64,000 bases of DNA from NCBI GenBank assembly GCA_951406725.2, contig OX597816.1:22072001-22136000 (forward strand). The letters run 5' to 3'. How positions within the stretch are numbered: position 1 is the first letter of the stretch; each line of letters starts with the position of its first letter. The position numbers and the translations under genes are program-made. Positions 6,025-53,866 of this stretch are shown here, in pieces. The notes beneath the pieces were generated by a model. The model saw nothing but the letters and a program-made list of their open reading frames with translations. It ran no database searches and was not told the DNA's origin. Source of the DNA: Octopus vulgaris. Lineage: Eukaryota.

Positions 6025-6100
6025 TTGGGCAAGTGTCTTCTCGGGCAAAACAAAGCCTTGTGAGTGGACTTGGTACACGGAGACTGAAAGAAGTCAGTCG

Positions 6101-6179
<79 letters not shown>

Positions 6180-18468: not shown

Positions 18469-18992
18469 ATCCAAACACGAAAGAACAAAAAAACACAACA
18501 ACGCGAGGACGTGGAACAAATATAGTATTATTGGACGCTCAGGAAAGAAGGAAAGAAGGAGTGTTTAACGTTTCGAGCAGAGCTCTTCGTCGGAAACATA
18601 GGAGAAGGAAAGATCCAGTGAAGGGAAGACAGAGGAAAAAAATCGCCAACGGTACACACGCGGTCACAACCGCAGGTTCGATATACGAAATAACGGGATA
18701 ATAATAATGGTTTCGCAAATCGTTCTACACCAGATACTGGTAATAACCCTCGACGATACGCAACACTCAGCTTTATTCTGCTCAAGAGTTTCTGTGCATA
18801 TACATTTATATTGAGGCACATTCCATTAGGAGCCAACCAATAGGGGTGTTCTTCTTCCGCCCAACAATGTGTCTGTATTTCTCCCCCACTCCGGCCAAAC
18901 AATGTTGGTGTGTCTACGTCCTCCTAACTTAGTGGTTCGGCAAAAAAATCCCGATGGAATAAGTACTAGGCTTACAAAGAATAAGTCCTGGG
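18290..18992 (+). mobile_element. SINE family A interrupted at its internal (TA)n by the hammerhead element 18465-18668
   Basis: 5' half at 18290-18436; 3' half resumes at ~18868. Confidence 0.7.
18465..18668 (-). mobile_element. ~200-bp (TA)n-anchored non-autonomous element with U4C-variant minimal hammerhead (copy 1)
   Basis: Three copies with the same ends, (TA)n-gttaat.caaaca...cggtacacacg.ggtcaca. 18562-18598 on the minus strand reads UGUUU CCGACGA A GAGC UCU GCUC GAA ACGU U AAACA. Confidence 0.8.
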
Positions 18993-20309: not shown

Positions 20310-20880
20310 TTTTCTACTCTAGGCACAAGGCCCGTAAATTTGGGAGATAGGGCCAGTCGATTAGATCGACCTCAGTACGTAACAGGTACTTAATTTACCG
20401 ACCTCGATTGAGACGAAAGCAAAGTCGACCTCTGCGGAATTTGAACTCAGAACGTAGCGGCAGATGAAATACCTATTTCTTTACTACCTACAAGGGGCAA
20501 AACACAGACAAGACAAACAAATGGATTAAGTCGATTATATCGACCCCGGTGCGTAATTGGTACTTAATTTATCGACTCCAAAAGGATGAAAGGCAAAGTC
20601 GACCTCGGTGGAATTTGAAATCAGAACGTAGCGGCAGATGAAATACCTATTTCTTTACTACCTACAAGGGGCTAAACACAGACAGGACAAACAAGGACAG
20701 ACAAATAGATTAAGTCGATTGTATCGACCCCAGTACGTAACTGGTACTTATTTGATCGACCCCGAAAGGATGAAAGGCAAAGTCGACCTCGGCAGAATTT
20801 GAACTGAGAACGTAGCAGCAGACGAAATACTGCTAAGCATTTCACCCGGTGTGCTAACGATTCTGCCAGCTCACACCTTG
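20310..20880 (-). mobile_element. Tandem array of three SINE family B units
   Basis: aaagtcgacctc...gaatttgaa.t.agaacgtagc.gcaga repeated three times. Confidence 0.8.
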
Positions 20881-46849: not shown

Positions 46850-47197
46850 TGTATATGTGTGCATTGATGTATGTATATATGTATGTACGCACGTATATAT
46901 ATATACATATATGGTATTAGTATGCCAGTATATAATTGAAAGGAAATTTAACATATATATATATATAAAAAATAAACTCTTCCATGGACGTTCACAGTAG
47001 CACAATCAACTTGATCACAATGCAACACGTATACAAATAATAAACAACAGGTCTTCACTACCATTCTTTGAAACAATATGAAAATTAAATACATCTTTAA
47101 AATCATAAATACAATCATGTAGTAATAATTAAAATCACTACCGTTGTCTGGTGAGAAACATACTGAATCACGTTAATAACTTTAATTATTCATCTGA

Positions 47198-47579
47198 CTA
47201 GCAGTATCGCCCGGCGTTGCTCAGGTTTGTATGAAATAACTATAAAGCATTTTTAGAGAGTTATAGCCAAAAAATAGCAAAAAAATGGAAAAAAAATATG
47301 GTAAATTTTTTTTTGAGATATAAAAAAGGTGGAGTTGCGTCCCCTAGACAGTTTGTGGTTCGTGTTTCTGATTCTCGACCCCATGTCGAATTTATCGATT
47401 TTTTCAGAACTGGAGGAACTTTTCAAAATTTTCACTGCGTTAGTTTTGAATTATGACATTGGGCTATGTGTGTGTCAAGTTTCATCAGAATCGGTTGAAA
47501 GCCGTGGTCAGGGTGAGGGTACAAGCAAACAGACACACAGAAACACGCACAGACAAACTGCCGTTTATATATAGAGAGA
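47198..47579 (-). mobile_element. Non-autonomous Helitron (copy 2)
   Basis: Near-identical to 39015-39406, with the same termini. Confidence 0.8.
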
Positions 47580-47730
47580 TAATAAGAACATTGCTTTCAT
47601 GCTGTGTCCTTTTATTGGCATGATATTCTCGCAATCACGTCGTATAAATACACACACACACATGTGTATGTGTGTATATATGTATGATACATATACATAT
47701 ATATCTATATATATACATATATATATATAC

Positions 47731-47816
<86 letters not shown>

Positions 47817-47930
47817 AGTATAGAAATTCGGGGTGAGTACTTGATAATTATAAGCACCTGTGTATACCGTTTGGTGGTGTAGGTGGTGGAGTAAATTGAT
47901 CAAAATAAAAAACATGATGCCAAGGATTCA

Positions 47931-48008
47931 GCGGTACATATGTTTCGGGCCTTTATTAGACAGATTTATAACAATGCATAATGTATGTCTGTGGCCTTCT
48001 TCAGCCGC
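47931..48008 (-). ncRNA. Type-I hammerhead ribozyme in the PLE pseudo-LTR
   Basis: Minus strand reads GCGG CUGAAGA A GGCC ACAGA...UCUGU...GGCC C GAA ACAUAUGU A CCGC: stem I GCGG/CCGC, core CUGANGA and GAAA, GC stem II, palindromic stem III ACAUAUGU, GUA cleavage triplet. Confidence 0.85.
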
Positions 48009-48465
48009 GCACAACCGCTCCCACAAGGACATGTATTACATCAAAAATTCTTGGTTGGGGATGCAAATCCTCTCATTCGCGTACGACATAATGCGGCAAC
48101 AGCATAGAATTGAAGCGTCCATCTCCTTCTTCTCTCAATGTAGAATGAGGAAATTTGGATGTTGAAGTAATGTAAATAAATAAATACATATATAGACAAA
48201 ATATAAAAATGTAGAGTGTAAAGATATAGAGGGGATATAAAGAATATAAAGAAATATAAATGAATGTAAAGGCATAAGGTTATAAAGTAAAAATAGAAAT
48301 AGAAATAAAAGTAAAAAGTAAAAAAATAAAAATAGGAATAAAAATGATAAAAATGCAAAAAAAATATAAAGGTAAGGGATGTATAGAGGTTACGGACCAA
48401 ACATGGTGGTCAGGAAATTGATAAAATTTAGTTGTAGAAGCTTTGGGTGTCAATAAATCAACATG
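47980..48465. repeat. Pseudo-LTR segment (3' copy) that is inverted-duplicated at 52432-52890
   Basis: aatgtatgtctgtggccttcttcagccgcgc...caataaatcaacatg is the reverse complement of 52432-52890, apart from a few substitutions and indels in the A-rich tract. Confidence 0.92.
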
Positions 48466-49717
48466 GTCGTCTGGGGACCTAGTGTATTGTAAATCAGAGC
48501 TGTTGAGCGGTTAATCTAGTTCTTTGAATTAATTGGTCATCTTGTACATACATACCATCATGGATACATACACCCATATACACGCGCACATATACGCGCG
48601 CATACACGGCTCCAAGCATATAAGCATACATACGCACTCGCGTGTGAACATGTACATAAACACATATACACCCACATACACGCGCGCATATATACACGGA
48701 CATTATACGTGTACACACCCATATATACATACGTGCGTTCATCCTTACATACACATACACAGATGCCCACGCGTCCAGGTTTAGATATAAGATATTAAAG
48801 GATGTATATAAGAACGTATGTAAAGAATCACGCACTCACGTCTACACGTGCACGCCCACACGGCTGTGTGTCCATATGTGCGTGCACATATACACTTACA
48901 TACACACACATAGACATACGCGCATATGGGTATAGCTATAAGATGTATACAAATAGGTGTAAACATATGCATATAAGAAATCTGCGAAAACATGTAAAAA
49001 AATGTAAAGAAACACGTAAGAAATTTTTAAAAAATTATTAAGGAAAATTATTAGAGATGAGTAACGGGGTATGCACATCCAGACGTAGATGTTTACTCGT
49101 ACATATGTACACATATGTATACGTATACATACGTACACGGACGCTCGTATAATCATAAAGCGGATACATAGGTAAGTAAATAAGGGATAAGCAAGAAAAA
49201 AAATAGACATATATAGAGATATAAAGCGATAAGTTAGGGGTAAGAATGAGGGTAAGAATAAAAATTAGAAATAAAAGTAAGAAATACAATATAAAATAAG
49301 AAATACAATATAAAAGTTAGAAATGAAATATAAAAATTATAAAAATTATAAGAATTAAAATAAGGGATGAAAATAAAAATAAGAATAAAGGTAAAGCGAA
49401 ATAGAATAGGATAAAGCAAAATAAAAATATAATCTGGTAAAGTTTAACATGAGATGAAGGTGGTTGAAAGTTAAAGGTGTGTGCTAAAGGTGCCCACGTA
49501 GGGGCGGGCGGGGGGAACTGAAAATTGGAAGGGGGAAGTGGAGTTTGGCGGTGTGCGTTCAACATCCGAGTTAGAAATGTGAAAGGGTATAGATATAGGG
49601 AAATAAAGAGACTAGATAGGAAGGATATGGGTGTAGGAGAAGAAATATGTAGGGAAAAAAACATATATGGGAGACAAAATGTGTATGTATAGGAGGAAAA
49701 TGCAGGGAAATATATAT

Positions 49718-49776
<59 letters not shown>

Positions 49777-49919
49777 CATATACATACACATATATGCACA
49801 TACATATATATACGCACACATATACGCATATACACGCACATATAGGAAAGCGGGATGCGCTGGAGCCGACAGGTTGCACCGGGTGGGAGGAAATTGCATG
49901 GGGGAGTTGGTATAATAAC

Positions 49920-52430
49920 CTAAGCTTTGTAGTATTTGAAAGTATTAATAAGTTTGTGTATACAGGATGGTTTGAACTCTGACCTTTTGTTAATAAGATT
50001 GTGTTTGTCTTTGAATTTCAAGATGTTCAGGAGTTCTACACAACATAGTTGGCATCCCGCTCTATTATTTAAATAAGGTGCAGCTGATCCGATGATGGAC
50101 CACCTGAGTTTGAAGCCTATGCATTTGTCTTTTAATTCCCAAATTTTTTTAGAAAGGGAGGTGCTGTTAGCCTTATGTCTGTGTTTCAGCGAGGACCGGT
50201 GGTTGTAGTATCTGTATTTCCAGGAGGTTGAGCAACCTATGTAGGTGAGTTTGTTAAACTGGGTACTCACCTCACATGAATATATTACGTTTTTCGCCCT
50301 ACATGCGCCCTGTAGCGGACACTCGGATGCACATATGCAGTTGCAGTGCATTGCATTACTCGGTCGTGTGCTGCTAATCCCAGGCGGAGGTGTTGCAATA
50401 CGTGTGGGGGCGTTGATATCCTCCTGGTTGTTGATGGGTGTGGTATTGCCTCTGCTGTGTTGGCGGGTGTTATTACTAACTGTTTGGGTAATATGGCTGC
50501 CAGTCTGATTATATTGTCTACTATCTGGATGAGGGGGTTTCGGTTGGTCGCTATAGCTTGCTCTTGATCTAGCTGTTCTAATATTAATATAGTTATGTTT
50601 AGCTATGAGGCAGCTCATGTTGGGCAGGGTAGAGTAGGAAATCCTAATGGTTTTGTTGGAGAAGATACTTCTATACTTATGGGTGGGTGGGAAGTTGTTG
50701 GAAATGATAGAGAATATTCTCTTACATAACTTACCCCTAACTGCTAAGTTGTATGGTATGTTGAACCATATATATTTGCGTAATCTACTATTATCCCTTC
50801 TATTTCTCCTAATAGGATCTATATTGCTCTCGTCGGGAGGGTTACTGTTGTGTGCTATTCTATTAGTTCGCCTATTTCCTATACGTTGTTTGGAGTTTAA
50901 ATTAGAATTATCGTTAGTATGAGTTGAGTGCGGAGTTCGATTATAATTGGGAGTTTTACGGCCGACGGACGTTCCCGGGTGGTCTACAAATGATATTCTC
51001 TGGTTATACCCAGCACTATAGAGAGCCTGGTTGTAGTGTTGTGCGTGATTATTGAAAATTTCTCTATTAGAGGATAGTTTTGTAAGTCTGTCTGAGATGG
51101 CTTGGACCGTGGTGCTAATTATACAGGGTGGATGGTTGGAAGAGGTGTGGATGTATTTGGTAGTTTCTTCGGGTTTCCTATACGGGTGGTGAAGGTGCTT
51201 ATTCAAGTCTAACATAACATCTAAGAAGTTTACTATTTTAGTATTGGTCATAAATTCTAGTTTAAGATTGAAGGATTTGAAAAAAAGCCTGATCTTTTTC
51301 CTAATTCTTTCTAGTTTACTCCTATTGTTGGTGGGGTATATGAAGAGAGCGTCATCTCTGTATAGACCCCCCTGAAGATCCGGTACCTCGAAGAAAAGCT
51401 TCTTGAGCAGGTAGGCCCCGACCAAGTCAGTCACCTGAGCTGAATCGCTCGAGCCCATAGCCACATCAAAATTATCGGGGGTATCGGATCTGGTCCAAAG
51501 TCTACCGTCGAATTCTATTATGGTTTTTCTAGCTAATAGTATTATGTCAATTTTTTCTCTGTCTATGAGCGAAAGGCTGCGGGCAAATATAAGGGATTTG
51601 TTAAGTAAGATGGGGGATATACTGGCGTAGTAGTTAGCTATGTCGAACTGGATGAATGAGTAGTTGGGTCTATTGGTGATTGTGTTAAACCATTCTAGCA
51701 CATCGTCGGTGTTAATCCATAGTTGGAGTGGGATGTGGGGTTTGATGCGTGGGATCACCTTGTCCAGGATAGTCTTGCTAAGTCTGCCGATATCCGATTT
51801 AGTCGGACAGATTAATCGTACTCCTACATTATCCGGGAAGTCTTTATTATGGTCTTTAATAGTAATTTTGGGTACCCGTAGTTTGATTGGTTCCGTTCTG
51901 TCCAGGAGGTCTAATTTGCTCATAACTTCCTTGATTTTGTAGTTAATTTCCTTAAGGTTATCCGTAGAAGTAGTTTTATATTTTTTGCTAAGTTCCCTCA
52001 TGATGAGCGATTTGTAGGTTTGGTAGTCCAACCTATACCAGTTCCCAGTCTTGTCGGCGGGTATGATAAGACTATCATCGTTCCTAAGTGAATGCAGGAA
52101 ATCTTTAAGGCTCCTTAAGTGGGTGTTGGGAATGGTCTTATGCTTACTAATGTTGATGTTGGTAATGAGGTCGTTTAAGTCTTTTTCAAATTTTTCCAGT
52201 GCGTAGTTAGAGGGTGGGTTTCTTCTGCTTTTAAATATTTTCCTATGTGCTGTTTCTTCTTGGTTAGAGTTGGGGTTGCTTTTCCCCGGGTTATCGAAAT
52301 GGTAGGCCGCCCACCTGATTCTTCTAATAAAGTCTGTGGTCCGGTGGAAGAGGGTCGTCGTGTAAGTTTTGTCGGAGTGGAGGGGTATGTCCTTGGGAGA
52401 GAAGTTTGTGTGAATCCTTTGAATCTTCAT
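49920..52430 (-). CDS. Penelope-like element (Naiad-type) reverse transcriptase + GIY-YIG endonuclease, uninterrupted 836 aa from ATG at 52430 (ORF track extends to a TTG at 52454)
   Basis: RT motifs IIPADKTGNWY, FIQFDIANYYASI, AMGSSDSAQVTDL, LYRDDALF (51351-51362), NFLDV, PYRKP, SNHP; IWFNIPY; Cys cluster CNCICASECPLQGAC; GIY-YIG-like VIY...TYIG, R-x3-H, CQLC, NKRSE..C.H. The ADK motif and RT-EN order are PLE hallmarks. YRDD plus the CxC-x4-CPLxGxC linker fits the Naiad clade. Confidence 0.93.
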   Translation of the reverse strand: MKIQRIHTNFSPKDIPLHSDKTYTTTLFHRTTDFIRRIRWAAYHFDNPGKSNPNSNQEETAHRKIFKSRRNPPSNYALEKFEKDLNDLITNINISKHKTIPNTHLRSLKDFLHSLRNDDSLIIPADKTGNWYRLDYQTYKSLIMRELSKKYKTTSTDNLKEINYKIKEVMSKLDLLDRTEPIKLRVPKITIKDHNKDFPDNVGVRLICPTKSDIGRLSKTILDKVIPRIKPHIPLQLWINTDDVLEWFNTITNRPNYSFIQFDIANYYASISPILLNKSLIFARSLSLIDREKIDIILLARKTIIEFDGRLWTRSDTPDNFDVAMGSSDSAQVTDLVGAYLLKKLFFEVPDLQGGLYRDDALFIYPTNNRSKLERIRKKIRLFFKSFNLKLEFMTNTKIVNFLDVMLDLNKHLHHPYRKPEETTKYIHTSSNHPPCIISTTVQAISDRLTKLSSNREIFNNHAQHYNQALYSAGYNQRISFVDHPGTSVGRKTPNYNRTPHSTHTNDNSNLNSKQRIGNRRTNRIAHNSNPPDESNIDPIRRNRRDNSRLRKYIWFNIPYNLAVRGKLCKRIFSIISNNFPPTHKYRSIFSNKTIRISYSTLPNMSCLIAKHNYINIRTARSRASYSDQPKPPHPDSRQYNQTGSHITQTVSNNTRQHSRGNTTPINNQEDINAPTRIATPPPGISSTRPSNAMHCNCICASECPLQGACRAKNVIYSCEVSTQFNKLTYIGCSTSWKYRYYNHRSSLKHRHKANSTSLSKKIWELKDKCIGFKLRWSIIGSAAPYLNNRAGCQLCCVELLNILKFKDKHNLINKRSEFKPSCIHKLINTFKYYKA

Positions 52431-52431
52431 G

Positions 52432-52886
52432 CATGTTGATTTATTGACACCCAAAGCTTCTACAAATAAATTTTATCAATTTCCTGACCACCATGTTTGG
52501 TCCGTAACCTCTATACATCCCTTACCTTTATATTTTTTTATCATTTTTATTCCTATTTTTACTTTTTTCTATTATTTCTATTTCTATTTTTACTTTATAA
52601 CCTTATGCCTTTATATTTCTTTATATTCTTTATATCCCCTTTATATCTTTACACTCTACATTTTTATATTTTGTCTATATATGTATTTATTTATTTACAT
52701 TACTTCAACATCCAAATTTCCTCATTCTACATTGAGAGAAAAAGGAGATGGACGCTTCAATTCTATGCTGTTGCCGCATTATGTCGTACGCGAATGAGAG
52801 GATTTGCATCCCCAACCAAGAATTTTTGATGTAACACATGTCCTTGTGGAAGCTGTTGTGCGCGGCTGAAGAAGGCCACAGACATA

Positions 52887-52890
<4 letters not shown>
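52432..52890. repeat. Inverted, truncated pseudo-LTR at the 5' end of the PLE
   Basis: Reverse complement of 47980-48465. It ends within the hammerhead (ctgaagaaggccacagacatacatt) at a (TA)n run. Confidence 0.92.
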
Positions 52891-52961
<71 letters not shown>

Positions 52962-53114
52962 GTGAAATAGAAAGATGAATAATCTTGTAGTAGATTAATC
53001 AAAAGTTTAACCGATACCTTAGTAGCAAAAATCACAGCAGTAAAACAGCACGGTTGGAGGTACAACCATATGGTGTTGCAACCGTGCGTTGGTGCGGATA
53101 ATTGAAATTAGAAC

Positions 53115-53245
53115 ATTATTGGTGAATTGAAGAAATGGAGCTGAACGCAGATTGAACAGAAATCGTTTTATTAAACGATTTATTAAAACGATTTATTAAA
53201 ACGATTTCTGTTCAATCTGCGTTCAGCTCCATTTCTTCAATTCAC

Positions 53246-53252
<7 letters not shown>
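53115..53252. repeat. Perfect 56-bp inverted repeat with tandem-duplicated spacer, part of a (TA)n-flanked insert 52960-53252
   Basis: 53115-53170 is the reverse complement of 53197-53252. The spacer is built from aaacgatttatt copies. Confidence 0.88.
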
Positions 53253-53316: not shown

Positions 53317-53520
53317 GTTAATTCAAACAAGAAAGCACAAAAAAACACAACAACGCGAGGACGTGGAGCAAATATAGTATTATTGGACGCTCAAGAAATG
53401 AGGAAAGAAGGAGGGTATAACGTTTCGAGCGGAGCTCTTCATCGGAAACATAGGAGAAGGAAAGATCCAGAGAAAGGAAGACAGAGGAAAAAAATCGCCA
53501 ACGGTACACACGAGGTCACA
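53317..53520 (-). mobile_element. Same ~200-bp hammerhead-like element (copy 3)
   Basis: Near-identical to 18465-18668; core CCGAUGA A GAGC UCC GCUC GAA ACGU U; abuts (TA)n. Confidence 0.8.
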
Positions 53521-53866
53521 TGAAAGTACATCTCCGTGTATATATATATATATATATATATATGTATTTACTTAGACATATATATATACTCATATATATA
53601 TAATTATTTTCTTTTATCCTCCTACTGGTTTCCGCCACAGGTTTGTGTCATGCTGGAGTACCACCTTTCGGTGTATTTTGGGTCTCCTTTCAGTAGCGTA
53701 TTTGCGAAGAAGTGAGTTGGACGAAGCTTCTGTTCTTTGTGCCTCCTGCCGTGATGTGGGCTCATCTAGCAGTTCATATAGAAATTTTTCCGGGTGGCAT
53801 TTGAACGTTTCAACATCTACAGCTTGCAGATTTATTTGGTTCTTAAGTATGTGTATATAAATATAT

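Follow-up and report, generated by a model that had tools for sequence, protein, structure and literature searches.

The window, by which we mean the whole 64,000-nt stretch of Octopus vulgaris DNA analysed here, contains a Penelope-like element (PLE) with a unit of 4.6 kb, whose features are collected in Table 1. Its frame, P0001 (2511 nt without stop or frameshift), was the sole long frame not made of microsatellite or low-complexity text among the 39 stop-to-stop frames of at least 120 aa in the window. The frame is followed by a 3' region of 2105 nt (49919-47815) containing one type I hammerhead, and part of the 3' repeat recurs in inverted orientation, abutting the frame at the palindrome CATGCATG, 2 nt ahead of the ATG. 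Both ends of this copy abut (TA)n, the insertion target of the Hydra clade of PLEs. TA tracts of at least 16 nt are common here (69 in the window, amounting to 4% of the sequence), and a target duplication is illegible within the (TA)n tracts. The initial annotation of this DNA had described a PLE with an inverted pseudo-LTR, a hammerhead and a (TA)n target, with a single long ORF of 836 aa (RT, Cys linker and GIY-YIG), a 3' region of about 2.1 kb with the hammerhead, and (TA)n on both sides, and in all of these points it was borne out.

Table 1. Coordinates of the element and its flanks in the window
Feature	Position	Strand	Remarks
(TA)n tract adjoining the 3' end of the element	47743..47814	.	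target; degenerate TA extends to 47675
Post-hammerhead-cut tail	47815..47934	-	120 nt
Likely variant Hydra leader box	47836..47855	-	GCTT-N9-AAGTACT (clade: GCTC-N-GAGCACT)
Type I hammerhead	47931..48008	-	predicted cut after 47935
3' repeat portion copied in the inverted arm	47980..48465	-	
Non-coding spacer	48466..49919	-	1.45 kb, rich in degenerate microsatellite
Single ORF P0001, Hydra-clade RT-EN polyprotein	49920..52430	-	836 aa, stop-free
GIY-YIG endonuclease	49980..50294	-	residues 713-817
CxCX5C linker	50319..50345	-	residues 696-704
Telomerase-like RT	50934..52430	-	residues 1-499; RWA 39, DKT 126, FD 262, MGSSDSA 325, YRDD 357
Inverted arm, copied from part of the 3' repeat	52432..52890	+	459 nt
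(TA)n tract adjoining the inverted arm	52892..52958	.	

A structure model of P0001 was built from a 120-row alignment (pLDDT 85.4). Residues 1-499 of the model matched telomerase RT (Z 16.0, rmsd 4.3, 299 aligned), and residues 713-817 matched the GIY-YIG domain of I-TevI (Z 9.7, rmsd 2.5, 90 aligned). The predicted fold confirmed the domain order as RT followed by a C-terminal GIY-YIG. The catalytic motifs are unbroken, with ADK(T) at residues 125-128 and YRDD at 357 in the RT, and VIY (715-717), YIG (730-732), R740, H744, E799 and N814 in the nuclease. The nuclease is without CCHH; C793xxC796 precedes E799 and C823xH825 follows N814. Two polar inserts (about residues 487-544 and 637-691) were modelled with low confidence. 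The Pfam search of P0001 returned nothing relevant (one weak, irrelevant match), the PDB sequence search gave no match, and no relative of the element was found in the viral contigs searched.

Craig et al. 2021 (PMC8557442) characterise Hydra elements by a C-terminal nuclease that lacks CCHH and has its catalytic E and N flanked by CxxC and CxH, by the motifs RWK, DKT and CxCX5C, by a hammerhead and by insertion into (TA)n. Naiad elements are described in the same paper with an N-terminal nuclease, CxC, DKA, IFD and CCHH, no canonical hammerhead, and an insertion of about 20 aa in the fingers between motifs A and B. P0001 is a single ORF with a C-terminal GIY-YIG, DKT (126-128), CxCX5C (696-704), and CxxC/CxH without CCHH. 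All testable Hydra motifs were found but RWK, where R39 and W40 are followed by Ala; the nearest relatives carry RWR, RWK or RWM at this site. Marks of the Neptune, Nematis and Penelope/Poseidon groups (CCHH in the nuclease, DKG) are absent.

The Naiad identity proposed in the initial annotation has a negligible probability. It draws on two features common to several PLE clades (PMC8557442), insertion into (TA)n and an inverted arm, but the order of RT then GIY-YIG reported in that annotation, together with the hammerhead, is the opposite of the Naiad definition and fits Hydra. The identity was rejected on domain order, with the RT at residues 1-499, the nuclease at 713-817, and the N-terminus aligned with the starts of relatives. 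Moreover, the RT carries DKT at 126 instead of DKA, there is no CxC before the RT (the first Cys is residue 208), and in place of CCHH, which has two Cys between GIY and YIG, a single Cys (719) stands there, with no CX2-5CxxC match. A complete type I hammerhead is present. The spacing of motifs A and B is 63 aa (61-66 in 74 of 115 measured rows), and relative to Hydra-type relatives, which formed the comparison set, P0001 has no extra fingers insert.

The same motifs were counted in 121 proteins, namely P0001 and its best 120 relatives: DK[TS] was present in 119, CxCX5C in 112, RW[KR] in 114, CxxC..E in 118 and N..CxH in 117. The published Hydra proteins Hydra-1_Ajap, Hydra-1_Amil and Hydra-2_Amil closely resemble, by eye, the relatives P0076, P0022 and P0031, respectively. 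The element thus described fits the Hydra clade of PLEs.

In a FastTree tree of 120 rows (relatives only, unrooted and without outgroup or curated Naiad, Neptune, Nematis and Poseidon references), P0001 fell into a 7-row group with long branches (SH 99) that includes two Argonauta proteins. The best identity of P0001 to any full-length relative was 37-41%, and partial Octopus proteins reached 51-53%. This grouping with six proteins and these identities would also be expected of a separate, mainly octopod lineage, sister to the described Hydra elements and marked by the long 3' spacer, the polar inserts, a DSAQ motif B and an altered leader box. We regard such a lineage as very unlikely, however, as every Hydra nuclease and linker mark is kept, P0006 and P0018 form a link with the main group in this tree without outgroup, and motif B of Hydra-1_Obim is already intermediate (DSAD; PMC8557442). 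By these comparisons, the element represents a family missing from the published list and belongs to a divergent lineage that has octopod relatives. An octopod host would be likely from these relatives. The Hydra clade is already known with an octopus member, Hydra-1_Obim; the family described here is new and unusually long. As a separate observation, the Hydra-clade fragments P0049, P0218 and P0234 are annotated as host genes in public octopod proteomes (GATA zinc finger, protein kinase and uncharacterised), apparently due to asparagine-rich inserts.

The hammerhead consists of stem I (GCGG/CCGC), CUGAAGA, stem II (GGCC/GGCC, with a long loop), GAAA, and stem III (ACAUAUGU), which is palindromic and 2 bp long. 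This stretch (48008-47931) was the only match to the type I descriptor in the window; the descriptor was matched by 0 of 40 shuffles in its strict form and by 2 of 40 in its loose form. The minimum-energy fold of the 78-nt stretch had the hammerhead shape. Longer stretches around it gave no hammerhead fold and the z-score was not significant; an Rfam search returned no match for 47815-48500 and no hammerhead among the matches listed for the window (150 of 295). The letters at positions 10.1/11.1 (A, C) are unpaired, as they are in 25 of 53 relatives, and unpaired letters at these positions also occur in the published Hydra hammerhead table (PMC8557442). The predicted format matches that of the Hydra-clade hammerheads in that table. 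The location near the 3' end is likewise that of the clade, and cleavage is predicted. Because stem III is a palindrome of 2 bp, the ribozyme is predicted to cut in dimeric form only, within tandem transcripts, as would be the case for dimeric hammerheads (Cervera 2014, PMC4209133).

The relative loci comprised 79 metagenome loci, several of them near-copies; distances could be taken from a frame end in 77. A downstream hammerhead lay 44-515 nt after the stop in 53 of the 77, many of the misses being contigs that end early. The corresponding distance here is 1915 nt, because of the 1.45-kb spacer, whose compared edges (the first 70 nt and the last ~30 nt) are common to other copies. The tails of relatives measure 32-112 nt, against 120 nt here, and by analogy the tail would belong to the following unit, as the beginning of its leader.

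The two arms (47980-48465 and 52432-52890) were identical in 451 of 486 columns, with 8 substitutions and 3 gaps. The inverted arm stops within the loop of hammerhead stem II. It includes the CUGAAGA half alone, the final 165 nt being absent, and therefore holds half a ribozyme only. Accordingly, the inverted copy fused at the start of the frame stood as first annotated, except that its hammerhead is incomplete. In 33 relative loci a hammerhead lies upstream of the frame, with 87-185 nt from the cut to the ATG, and the native unit as read from these loci is hammerhead, leader (~150 nt) and ATG. The sequence upstream of the ATG of this copy contains no leader and no leader boxes. Contigs of two sequencing runs (X5 record 24 and X7 record 32) extend past 52432 into sequence unlike the window, two 12-letter pieces of which are absent from it; the ATG is therefore native, and the inverted arm has taken the place of the leader. 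Beyond 52890, contigs of three runs go on in the way that the 3' arm does. The promoter of D. virilis Penelope lies in the direct pseudo-LTR (Schostak 2008, PMC2377424), and bidirectional or opposite-facing promoters have been proposed in the pseudo-LTRs of other PLEs (PMC3846280). By analogy, the inverted arm might drive the frame. Three relatives also carry an inverted 3' arm at the frame start (L059 1091-1278/3129-3311, L062 124-244/2266-2386 and L073 790-974/2821-3005).

Parts of the element were found in 20 sequencing runs from 9 studies under four organism labels. Contigs of four runs (three organism labels) were placed on 49850-52891, numbering 1702, 1376, 614 and 167 per run, with 85-100% likeness to this region; the summed contig depth, which is not a copy number, increases toward the 3' end. 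The family is multi-copy and varied, with many related copies in the three organism labels. This copy differed from the contigs at 127 positions, of which the 40 best-supported were considered, 39 of them in the frame. Differences at 99% or more in all four runs were called private; the runs possibly derive from other species, and private changes may include species or subfamily differences. The 13 private changes comprised 4 silent and 9 non-silent ones (neutral expectation 24-27% silent, p 0.38-0.48), and the other 26 frame differences comprised 18 silent and 8 non-silent ones (p about 1e-5). The silent split differed between the private and shared classes (Fisher 0.039). The private changes of this copy look neutral by this measure. 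The shared changes are mostly silent (18:8), and therefore the family, not this copy, was under selection. One private change puts Asn at residue 195, a position that is Lys in every relative compared (119 of 119), and at residue 406 this copy has Met where 107 relatives have Thr. The private changes, together with the divergence of the arms (8 of 459 sites), point to about 1% drift since insertion, and hence to a young copy that is likely not a source copy.

An active source, now or lately, would be a Hydra-clade copy whose arm or flank drives transcription and whose differences mark a young subfamily not represented in the four runs compared. The unbroken 2511-nt frame and catalytic motifs, the native ATG and its context, and the opposite-facing promoter motifs of other PLEs (PMC3846280) are in keeping with such a role, which nevertheless appears unlikely: a 2.5-kb frame often survives 1% drift, neither leader nor boxes precede the ATG, and the private changes are neutral in pattern, with an invariant lysine lost. 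In addition, the arms differ at 8 sites and 3 gaps, and at least one of these differences, at 52466, occurs in no or almost no contig. Of the earlier description as young, intact and potentially active, the youth thus holds roughly and the frame is unbroken, but potential activity is weakened by the replaced leader and the neutral-looking changes. We consider it highly probable that the element is a leaderless Hydra-clade copy with an unbroken RT and GIY-YIG frame, likely inserted in (TA)n by target-primed reverse transcription, and likely a decaying daughter and not a source. Observed directly were the order of the domains, the motifs of the clade, the sequence of the hammerhead, the inverted arm, the lack of a leader and the many related copies under three organism labels.

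Other repeats in the window were compared with the element. A short element in two copies (53317-53538 and around 18528-18620) has minimal hammerhead-like cores, one core letter off (53445-53422 and 18593-18570), and probably represents a different Penelope-like family, as its 3' end; the copy at 53317-53538 is set between (TA)n tracts. On the reverse strand at about 960-1100, a degenerate hammerhead-like core at 1085 (CTGATGA ... GCCGAAAC, with a weakened stem II) was seen in what is possibly a third Penelope-derived repeat. A relaxed hammerhead scan gave 4 matches in the window, against 0-5 in shuffles. The repeats at 53445, 18593 and 1085 have no sequence in common with the end of the element and no clade box, and the suggestion that the element supplied RT/EN to the non-coding hammerhead elements of the window found no support in this comparison.

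The CTGATGA...GAAA matches at 47488 and 39310 failed the descriptor and were rejected as hammerheads. A non-coding repeat of ~390 nt is present in two 93%-identical copies (47197-47580 and 39014-39401), in which CTGATGAAAC fails the hammerhead descriptor and whose ends presumably recall non-autonomous Helitron-type elements. To the right of the TA flank of the element lies a near-palindrome of about 170 nt (53081-53250) with a central 13-nt tandem repeat. SINE-like dispersed repeats ending in (TA)n were noted at 6040-6147, 16302, 18378, 24992, 25160, 35904, 38410 and 20355-20830, some of them in tandem with periods of 168 and 184.

The leaders of the Hydra-clade loci (L001-L079) showed twin GCTC...GAGCACT boxes between the hammerhead and the ATG, each after a TATA-like run (for example, L002 339-361 and 398-425; L020 111-129 and 168-186). 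In 279,981 nt of relative loci, GAGCACT occurred 142 times in sense versus 12 times on the other strand, and GCTC was located at most 32 nt upstream in 122 of the occurrences. A loose box pattern was matched twice in 25 and once in 5 of 30 distinct leaders (0.077 per shuffled leader). The paired letters were almost invariant in 62 aligned boxes of the 96 distinct ones, and a covariance model could therefore show no covariation; such invariance cannot separate an RNA hairpin from a DNA site. When TA-abutting ends were matched to a read-through copy, GCTC began 6, 6, 6, 8 and 11 nt beyond the end in all five cases, of which the 11-nt one lacked a full box match, and in two more cases the distance was 7 and 10 nt. 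The box-and-end rule excludes L001/L039, L017/L021 and L067, in which the TA run is part of the leader itself, and for seven tails there was no closely similar leader to compare.

In the element itself, the likely variant box in the tail (47855-47836) shows one compensatory pair and is matched by 0.75% of shuffled tails; the loose pattern, which was set after seeing the variant, occurs at 12 places in the window, and the variant is weak alone. In the loose end of the native leader, 14 nt ahead of the ATG, there is a 3' half resembling that of the variant. The outer end of the inverted arm is not near any box.

Penelope-like elements are the sister group of telomerase, and to our knowledge only one has been assayed as a full protein. 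This side result, which bears on how PLEs choose the RT start, matters more than the element. We tentatively propose, as an idea with somewhat less than an even chance, that the twin box (TATA-like run, GCTC, 8-17 nt, GAGCACT) is an undescribed cis signal to which the protein of the element would bind, that RT would start 6-11 nt upstream of it to give short or long tails, and that the octopod lineage would have changed the signal by a compensatory pair. The nearly invariant twin box with mapped ends offers a direct test of RT start choice in the most divergent PLE clade. No description of the twin box was found in the portions covered of the main text of PMC8557442 or in a search of the motif literature; Repbase, subscription papers and the supplementary figures S7/S8 may carry one.

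The insertion could have proceeded as follows. From PLE biology, the nuclease would nick AT-rich DNA. The RT would start at an internal site of an RNA exceeding one unit in length, 120 nt beyond the hammerhead cut and probably immediately ahead of the second leader box. It would then copy 4.6 kb and stop 2 nt short of the ATG. A second primer or a template switch would produce the inverted arm, either by second priming in the AT-rich loop II or by fold-back at the CATGCATG junction. Twin priming is known from LINE-1 work. Self-priming has been discussed for PLEs (PMC3846280). A later loss into the TA tract may also have occurred. Internal RT starts and AT-rich cuts have been shown for PAc (Frangieh 2024, PMC11167929). 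Expression would need a direct upstream repeat (hammerhead, ~150-nt leader and ATG), which is absent from this copy.

Within its clade the element is ordinary. Its description contributes a family of unusual length and sets right a label that automated pipelines leave unresolved. With the Hydra clade (PMC8557442) it shares the single ORF with RT then GIY-YIG, DKT, CxCX5C, CxxC/CxH without CCHH, a type I hammerhead of the kind often unpaired at 10.1/11.1, and the (TA)n target. It differs in length (836 aa against about 700-730, and 4.6 kb against generally under about 3 kb), in RWA for RWK, in the long hammerhead loop II and in the altered leader box. Hydra-1_Obim of Octopus bimaculoides (PMC8557442) is of the same clade but a different family, the first 400 residues differing throughout by eye, and the inverted 5' copy is also seen in Penelope-13_HM (PMC8557442). 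The (TA)n preference, the inverted 5' arm and the occurrence in cephalopods are shared with Naiads, which in contrast are described with an N-terminal nuclease with CCHH, CxC, DKA and IFD and without a canonical hammerhead (PMC8557442). Pen1_Av and Pen2_Av of Adineta vaga (PMC3846280) provide precedents for a spacer of 0.9-1.5 kb between ORF and 3' repeat, for inverted pseudo-LTRs with a junction palindrome and for asparagine-rich ORF inserts; those elements belong to another PLE clade and their spacer varies by copy, whereas here the two edges compared are shared. PAc, a Poseidon element of Anolis carolinensis (PMC11167929), serves as the model for the mechanism, with AT-rich nicking and two internal RT starts giving a tail. 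Unlike the present element, PAc belongs to the Penelope/Poseidon clade and its start sites map within the ORF, to a stem-loop rich in AC, giving a tail of 30-40 nt, whereas here the ends lie in the leader.
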